Of a stretch of DNA of 64,000 nt, positions 39,389-39,521 are shown one piece after another; within the stretch, counting starts at the first letter, position 1; each line of letters opens with the position of its first letter. The translations under genes and the position numbers were made by a program. Source of the stretch: Escherichia coli (GTDB lineage: Bacteria > Pseudomonadota > Gammaproteobacteria > Enterobacterales > Enterobacteriaceae); the NCBI RefSeq assembly GCF_013122565.1, contig NZ_CP053258.1; one strand, 5' to 3'. A model generated the notes under the pieces. It made no database searches. It was not told the origin of the DNA and saw only the letters and a list, made by a program, of their open reading frames with translations.

Positions 39389-39521
39389 CGTGATGTCCAT
39401 CACAAAACACTTGTGTAAAAAAGCAACAAGCCGGCTGTTTTCGCTAAAAATGGCATTTAAATGTGAGTAATGTCACATTTTTGTTTTGATGGTTTGTTGA
39501 ATCTTTGTGATCTGAATCACA
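39389..39521 (-). promoter_or_regulatory. mtlA upstream region with three CRP-consensus sites
   Basis: TGTGA-N6-TCACA matches at about 39389-39404 (cGTGAtgtccaTCACA), 39462-39477 (TGTGAgtaatgTCACA) and 39506-39521 (TGTGAtctgaaTCACA). Confidence 0.6.

Follow-up and report, generated by a model that had tools for sequence, protein, structure and literature searches.

The mannitol (mtl) control region of Escherichia coli K-12 is the closest described counterpart of the locus analysed here. Its five CRP sites were first described, and footprinted, in 1995 (Ramseier & Saier 1995, Microbiology 141:1901, cited in PMC5320558). More recently, the promoter was classed as class III, and the sites were placed with their centres at -262.5, -219.5, -175.5, -102.5 and -58.5 relative to a transcription start determined by S1 mapping in K-12 (Lee et al. 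2026, NAR 54:gkag751, PMC13421365). Deletion of crp led to the loss of growth on mannitol and of mtlA expression, and chromosomal replacement of CRP2, CRP4 or CRP5 in K-12 nearly abolished the expression of mtlD; replacement of CRP3 caused a slight drop in expression, and CRP1 was dispensable and poorly occupied (PMC13421365). The authors favour CRP5 as the probable point of contact with the polymerase and propose an architectural role for the upstream cluster, which may act via phase-dependent looping or anti-silencing (PMC13421365). The repressor of the system, MtlR, has no DNA-binding domain and does not bind DNA alone, but it supershifts CRP-DNA complexes, provided that two adjacent sites 43-46 bp apart, with an optimum of 44-45 bp, are both occupied (PMC13421365). 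Docking of MtlR takes place on CRP1-2, CRP2-3 and CRP4-5, not on CRP3-4, and a 44-bp spacing engineered into malK was sufficient for it; the MtlR-CRP-DNA ternary complex and MtlR-dependent repression were shown for both K-12 and Salmonella (PMC13421365). The mtl promoter also has a Cra site, and Cra represses mtl (PMC13421365).

Other CRP-dependent promoters share parts of this design. The malK-lamB/malEFG promoters resemble mtl in being class III, with three or four CRP sites that act architecturally (PMC13421365, PMC5320558); unlike at mtl, their sites are 34 bp apart, MalT is needed, and MtlR does not dock unless a 44-bp spacing is engineered (PMC13421365). At deoP2 and related promoters, as at mtl, CRP serves both as an activator and as a platform for a repressor, and tandem sites are required (PMC13421365). 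The two repressors differ in what they recognize, since CytR binds the DNA between the CRP sites whereas MtlR reads only the geometry of two dimers 43-46 bp apart (PMC13421365). The pap promoter, with a CRP site at -215, requires remote CRP in a helical-phase-dependent manner and was used by the authors as a precedent for CRP2-CRP4 (PMC13421365). In contrast to mtl, pap has a single distal site, which works together with Lrp and H-NS. Partners of the Lrp/H-NS type are not known at mtl.

We analysed a 64-kb stretch of E. coli DNA (hereafter the window), in which mtlA, mtlD and mtlR are contiguous on the minus strand, according to their NF011663, NF002648 and PF05068 matches, with an array of CRP sites directly upstream of mtlA. 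The genes of the locus are as follows:

35323-35910, minus strand: mtlR, repressor without a DNA-binding domain (PF05068 MtlR, 223 bits), which docks on paired CRP dimers (docking from PMC13421365)
35910-37058, minus strand: mtlD, mannitol-1-phosphate 5-dehydrogenase (NF002648, 876 bits)
37288-39201, minus strand: mtlA, mannitol PTS enzyme IICBA (637-aa ORF; NF011663, 1323 bits, full length)
39738-40100, plus strand: yibI (DUF3302), the divergent neighbour, which we do not regard as the target of the array

The true start of mtlD was set at 37058, as the NF002648 match begins at residue 107 of the longest ORF. Beside yibI lies yibH, encoding a HlyD-type adaptor, which is also divergent and on the plus strand. 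The divergent mtlA-yibI intergenic region is 536 bp long (39202-39737) and has 42% GC. A 651-base query around the sites found matches in 5404 of 5426 complete E. coli genomes, with yibI and mtlA flanking it every time.

Sites were scored by the number of mismatches to the TGTGA-N6-TCACA core, by a 22-mer consensus count and against dinucleotide shuffles. Five sites were detected, the weak CRP1 only when up to three core mismatches were allowed. Their positions, together with those of the predicted promoter elements, obtained by placing the published site positions on the window sequence, are listed below:

39549-39564: CRP1, centre 39556.5 (-262.5), TGTGATCTACAGCATG, 7 of 10 core bases, three mismatches; weak and distal
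39506-39521: CRP2, centre 39513.5 (-219.5), TGTGATCTGAATCACA, perfect core
39462-39477: CRP3, centre 39469.5 (-175.5), TGTGAGTAATGTCACA, perfect core
39389-39404: CRP4, centre 39396.5 (-102.5), CGTGATGTCCATCACA, one mismatch
39345-39360: CRP5, centre 39352.5 (-58.5), TGTGATATTAGTCACA, perfect core; promoter-proximal, 144-159 bp upstream of the mtlA ATG
39324-39329, minus strand: predicted -35 hexamer TGGACA
39301-39306, minus strand: predicted -10 hexamer CAGATT, separated from the -35 by a 17-bp spacer
39294, minus strand: predicted mtl transcription start (+1), giving a leader of 93 nt (39202-39294)

From CRP1 to CRP5, the centre-to-centre spacings are 43, 44, 73 and 44 bp, so that three adjacent pairs (CRP1-2, CRP2-3 and CRP4-5) fall within 43-46 bp; CRP2-CRP3 is the sole pair of two perfect cores at such a distance within the 64-kb window. 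When all of the approximately 64,000 positions were ranked by the 22-mer consensus, the five sites were placed 1st, 2nd-4th, 5th-17th and, for two of them, 18th-64th. The best match of the window is CRP3, with 17 of 22 positions, and the two lowest-placed sites are CRP4 and CRP5, ranked by an unweighted count that is a crude stand-in for a CRP weight matrix and separates them moderately from the background. The FNR consensus is TTGAT-N4-ATCAA. FNR was considered as an alternative regulator and rejected, since all the cores read TGTGA/TCACA and do not match this sequence.

The first-pass annotation of this region had reported three TGTGA-N6-TCACA sites, two perfect and one with a single deviation, located 190-320 bp upstream of mtlA. 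All three were recovered, at 39389-39404, 39462-39477 and 39506-39521, and measured from the ATG they lie at 188-320 bp. The centres in the window reproduce the published spacings, which identifies these three sites as CRP4, CRP3 and CRP2, respectively. The list was nevertheless incomplete, as it missed the weak CRP1 and the perfect CRP5, the latter being 29 bp outside the interval 39389-39521 that had been described. Its interpretation as a catabolite-activated promoter with multiple CRP dimers is correct, in view of the match to the characterised mtl sites in both relative position and core sequence, and of the requirement for CRP (PMC13421365). A comparison with the mapped mtl sites, which had been suggested as a check, gave identical spacings of 43, 44, 73 and 44 bp, and the positions agree once the start is placed at 39294. 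The three-site finding is correct, ordinary and already explained in the literature; it leaves E. coli biology unchanged, the sites having been footprinted in 1995 and shown in 2026 to serve both activation and the docking of MtlR. Its value is one of calibration, in that a real regulatory array was recognised from the sequence alone, but in clipped form.

We infer a start at 39294 because it is the only position that yields all five published centres, from -58.5 to -262.5. With its centre at -58.5, CRP5 deviates by 3 bp from -61.5, the position that is canonical for class I promoters. The sequence CAGATT would make a poor -10 element, which fits activator dependence. The mtl promoter was missed by a generic search for sigma-70 promoters and terminators over 39150-39800, which is not surprising for a weak promoter that depends on an activator, and the search detected no promoter-like site facing yibI. 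Its only hit, at 39195-39222 on the plus strand, overlaps the start of mtlA and does not exceed what shuffled sequences yield; the outcome was set aside as uninformative for a promoter of this type. A search of 39100-39800 against Rfam gave no match at E<=1, so that known RNA elements, e.g., an antisense RNA resembling MtlS of Vibrio, were not detected there. Between the predicted -35 and -10, on the plus strand, ACTGAATCGGTTAA occupies 39309-39322. This sequence is a putative Cra (FruR)-type box, as it fits the consensus RSTGAAWCSNTHHW of this regulator, and its presence is in line with the repression of mtl by Cra that has been reported.

The window and the K-12 mtlADR locus have a common gene order, i.e., yibH-yibI followed by the divergent mtlA-mtlD-mtlR. 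Both contain five CRP sites with identical pentamers and identical spacings (43, 44, 73 and 44 bp), and the predicted -35, -10 and Cra box are the same. Binding of cAMP-CRP was shown by EMSA on the K-12 sequence, whose pentamers are those of the window (PMC13421365). The window nevertheless carries an allelic variant, with 97.2% identity to K-12 MG1655 over the 536-bp intergenic region. The 15 intergenic differences are distributed unevenly: none affects the 50 pentamer positions, five fall among the 30 N6 positions, and ten among the 456 others. The enrichment in N6 has a Fisher p=0.0012, in a test that was applied post hoc. The five N6 differences fall in CRP3, CRP4 and CRP5, in spacers that are not contacted, although they might alter the affinities of these sites, and two other differences lie near the predicted start, at 39295, directly beside it, and at 39290. 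The unconstrained site centres appear to evolve faster than any other positions in the region; constraint on the remaining sequence would be an alternative explanation. The intergenic allele of the window is rare, with 100% identity in only four of the 5404 matching complete E. coli genomes. For the 651-base query, the next-best allele has 98.8% identity, and nearly all the remaining ones about 97%.

To place the array in a wider context, we searched one genome from each of 100,044 species for pairs of perfect cores with 27-30 bp between them, i.e., 43-46 bp centre to centre. The scan yielded at least 120 loci, and 70 of the 120 loci listed are mtl regulatory regions. In 63 of the loci listed, the start of an MtlA homologue is located roughly 90-430 bp from the closest array site; the sequences of seven further loci, which belong to Enterobacterales and Pasteurellaceae, stop short of the gene and show the same layout. 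The perfect pair at the 70 mtl loci listed has a spacing of 44 bp 69 times and of 43 bp three times, in contrast to the flat distribution (10, 15, 10 and 15 for 43, 44, 45 and 46 bp, respectively) at the 50 unrelated loci among the matches listed. A second pair corresponding to CRP4-CRP5, which the search pattern did not select, was present at exactly +73 and +44 bp toward mtlA in at least 45 loci, and among the matches listed the middle distance is 72 bp in two loci and 74 bp in one. The loci listed with the 44-73-44 arrangement span Escherichia, Klebsiella, Enterobacter, Cedecea, Pantoea, Serratia, Pectobacterium, Samsonia and Budvicia.

An alignment of 27 mtl upstream regions revealed that the pentamers of CRP4 and CRP5 and the predicted -10 are the best-conserved columns, the -10 being kept across genera, whereas conservation across genera is lacking in the N6 spacers, in the sequences between sites and in CRP1. 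The distance from CRP5 to the mtlA ATG ranges from about 148 to 272 bp in the loci listed, while the spacing within the array holds. Because one perfect pair was the criterion for inclusion, the conservation of that pair is circular; this does not apply to the location next to mtlA, to the prevalence of 44 bp or to the 73+44 extension. To a modest degree, the scan confirms the published spacing rule independently, and among the matches listed perfect pairs at 43-46 bp are mostly mtl operators. The mtl loci of Pasteurellaceae and Orbaceae among the matches listed have a single pair at 44 bp, sometimes at 43 bp, which in Pasteurellaceae is often accompanied by another perfect core 40-41 bp farther upstream.

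Given the low GC content of the intergenic region (only 42%), we considered that the five sites could be a functionless chance cluster of palindromes in AT-rich DNA, all the more so as CRP look-alikes with two mismatches also group in the AT-rich segment 33650-34030. The shuffled sequences argue strongly against this explanation. The window contains three perfect sites, compared with a mean of 0.05 and a maximum of 1 per 64-kb window in 1000 dinucleotide-preserving shuffles. Four sites with at most one mismatch occur inside 200 bp (spanning 177 bp), whereas never more than two did so in any of 1000 window shuffles. For the 536-bp intergenic region, the mean over 5000 shuffles was 0.026, and none of them exceeded 1. 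A cluster of four was never reached in shuffles of either the window or the region, and the observed count was not approached by any of them. Furthermore, the spacing is kept to the base pair across a whole bacterial order, the changes relative to K-12 spare all 50 pentamer positions, and binding and mutagenesis data have been published (PMC13421365). The probability of a chance cluster is, in our judgement, practically nil.

The location of the array within a divergent intergenic region of 536 bp, with CRP1 about 180 bp from the yibI ATG, would also be compatible with a control region that mainly serves yibIH, or that is shared by both units in a bidirectional manner. Several observations make this improbable. 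Among the matches listed, yibIH adjoins mtlA in only 15 of approximately 70 array-bearing mtl loci, and in the sequence examined from Pantoea, Pectobacterium, Serratia, Budvicia and Pasteurellaceae the array is retained but yibIH is not found. The strong sites are those nearest to mtlA, the yibI-proximal CRP1 being the weakest and least conserved; the scan of 39150-39800 gave no sigma-70-like promoter facing yibI, and mutations of the sites nearly abolish mtl expression (PMC13421365). Repression of the CytR type, in which a DNA-binding repressor is sandwiched between CRP dimers instead of bridging them as MtlR does, is the classical precedent for repression at paired CRP sites and was discussed by the authors (PMC13421365). 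Its operation at the tandem sites of the window is difficult to reconcile with the layout, and we consider it very improbable. The CRP sites of deoP2 are roughly 53 bp apart, and about 52-53 bp is the defining CytR spacing. The spacings in the window are 43, 44 and 73 bp, instead of about 52-53 bp flanking a conserved CytR operator. The inter-site sequences are unconserved across genera, as also stated in PMC13421365, which argues against a sequence-specific operator. In addition, MtlR alone does not bind DNA yet supershifts CRP-DNA, and transplanting a 44-bp spacing to malK is enough (PMC13421365).

We therefore have little doubt that the region is the mtlADR control region, with a CRP-dependent promoter of class III and five cAMP-CRP sites, whose paired dimers can dock MtlR. 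For this assignment, the sites, statistics, spacing, core identity with K-12, presence of mtlR and conservation come from our own analysis, and the binding, activation, docking and start from the literature. At high cAMP, CRP dimers would occupy CRP2-CRP5, and CRP5 would most likely recruit RNA polymerase to the weak promoter formed by the -35 TGGACA and the -10 CAGATT. The upstream dimers would be needed as well, probably for architectural or helical-phase reasons. An MtlR dimer would then span two CRP dimers on the DNA and repress transcription with no DNA contact of its own. Such bridging is possible at pairs that are 43-44 bp apart (CRP4-5 and CRP2-3 or, alternatively, CRP1-2); as this spacing makes the pairs a platform for MtlR, the same sites would serve both activation and mannitol-specific repression. 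The window contains all the parts of the MtlR model, i.e., three pairs at 43-44 bp, mtlA and mtlR.

The distance between CRP3 and CRP4 is a separate matter. It is 73 bp and near-invariant across the Enterobacterales loci listed, and the 57 bp between the two sites are largely unconserved. The published MtlR model leaves this spacing unexplained, because 73 bp gives no MtlR docking. It is possible, although we put this forward only tentatively and consider it rather doubtful, that the CRP pairs are locked in a fixed helical phase (73 bp corresponding to about 7.0 turns), either in a higher-order CRP4(MtlR2) complex or in a phase-dependent activation loop. If this were true, the fixed phase between CRP3 and CRP4 would constitute a further architectural rule beyond the published model.

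Several of the matches listed show other arrangements. In ten Pasteurellaceae loci (L015, L050, L058, L068, L069, L096, L097, L105, L107 and L112), three perfect cores follow one another at distances of 40-41 and 44 bp, with 43 bp in place of 44 bp in L107. This layout differs from the enterobacterial 44-73-44, and 40-41 bp falls outside the 43-46 bp range of MtlR docking. The non-mtl loci with perfect pairs in gammaproteobacterial MAGs have no common gene context among the matches listed, with the exception of two marine loci near adhesin-like genes. In these two loci (L024, 2578-2636, and L043, 498-556), from unrelated assemblies of marine gammaproteobacteria, perfect cores 43 bp apart lie upstream of large adhesin-like genes. 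The two genes are homologous, their N-termini reading ...AIATVV..TG.AYARNADGELRE..., and the pairs may mark a conserved CRP/Vfr-controlled adhesin promoter. In another locus (L092, 1150-1210), two identical cores, TGTGAAATACGTCACA, are 45 bp apart and near an ORF whose N-terminus resembles, by eye, a cNMP-binding regulator of the Crp/Fnr family; if the ORF does belong to this family, the pair may be involved in autoregulation. Tannerella and Prevotellaceae MAGs from termite-gut-like samples accounted for L046-L048, L062 and L081-L084. The many matches in L046-L048 stem from tandemly repeated DNA with a 23-bp period, in which TGTGA...TCACA recurs, and not from regulator sites; L062 and L081-L084 gave single matches.

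Elsewhere in the window, between yibL and lldP, an island at 29302-34460 contains an adhesin gene and a 233-aa ORF. The adhesin gene (29302-33201, minus strand) encodes a 1299-aa YadA-like trimeric autotransporter with ESPR, YadA head, stalk and anchor domains. The 233-aa ORF (33245-33946, minus strand) had no Pfam match, and other E. coli have a SadB/YajI lipoprotein or DUF3251 annotated at the homologous position. The look-alike segment at 33650-34030, with 34-36% GC, overlaps this ORF: four CRP-like 16-mers with two mismatches each occur inside 380 bp, three of them within the ORF and one immediately upstream. This cluster is probably due to base composition. For 33200-34460, megablast found no match among the 5426 complete E. 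coli genomes, and for 28300-35000 as a whole the best coverage in this set was 60% at about 90% identity. One of the four strains with an intergenic allele 100% identical to that of the window, ECNB21-M121, is without the adhesin island found downstream in the window. The segment 29302-34460 is a divergent allele of an island of the UpaG/EhaG/SadA type.
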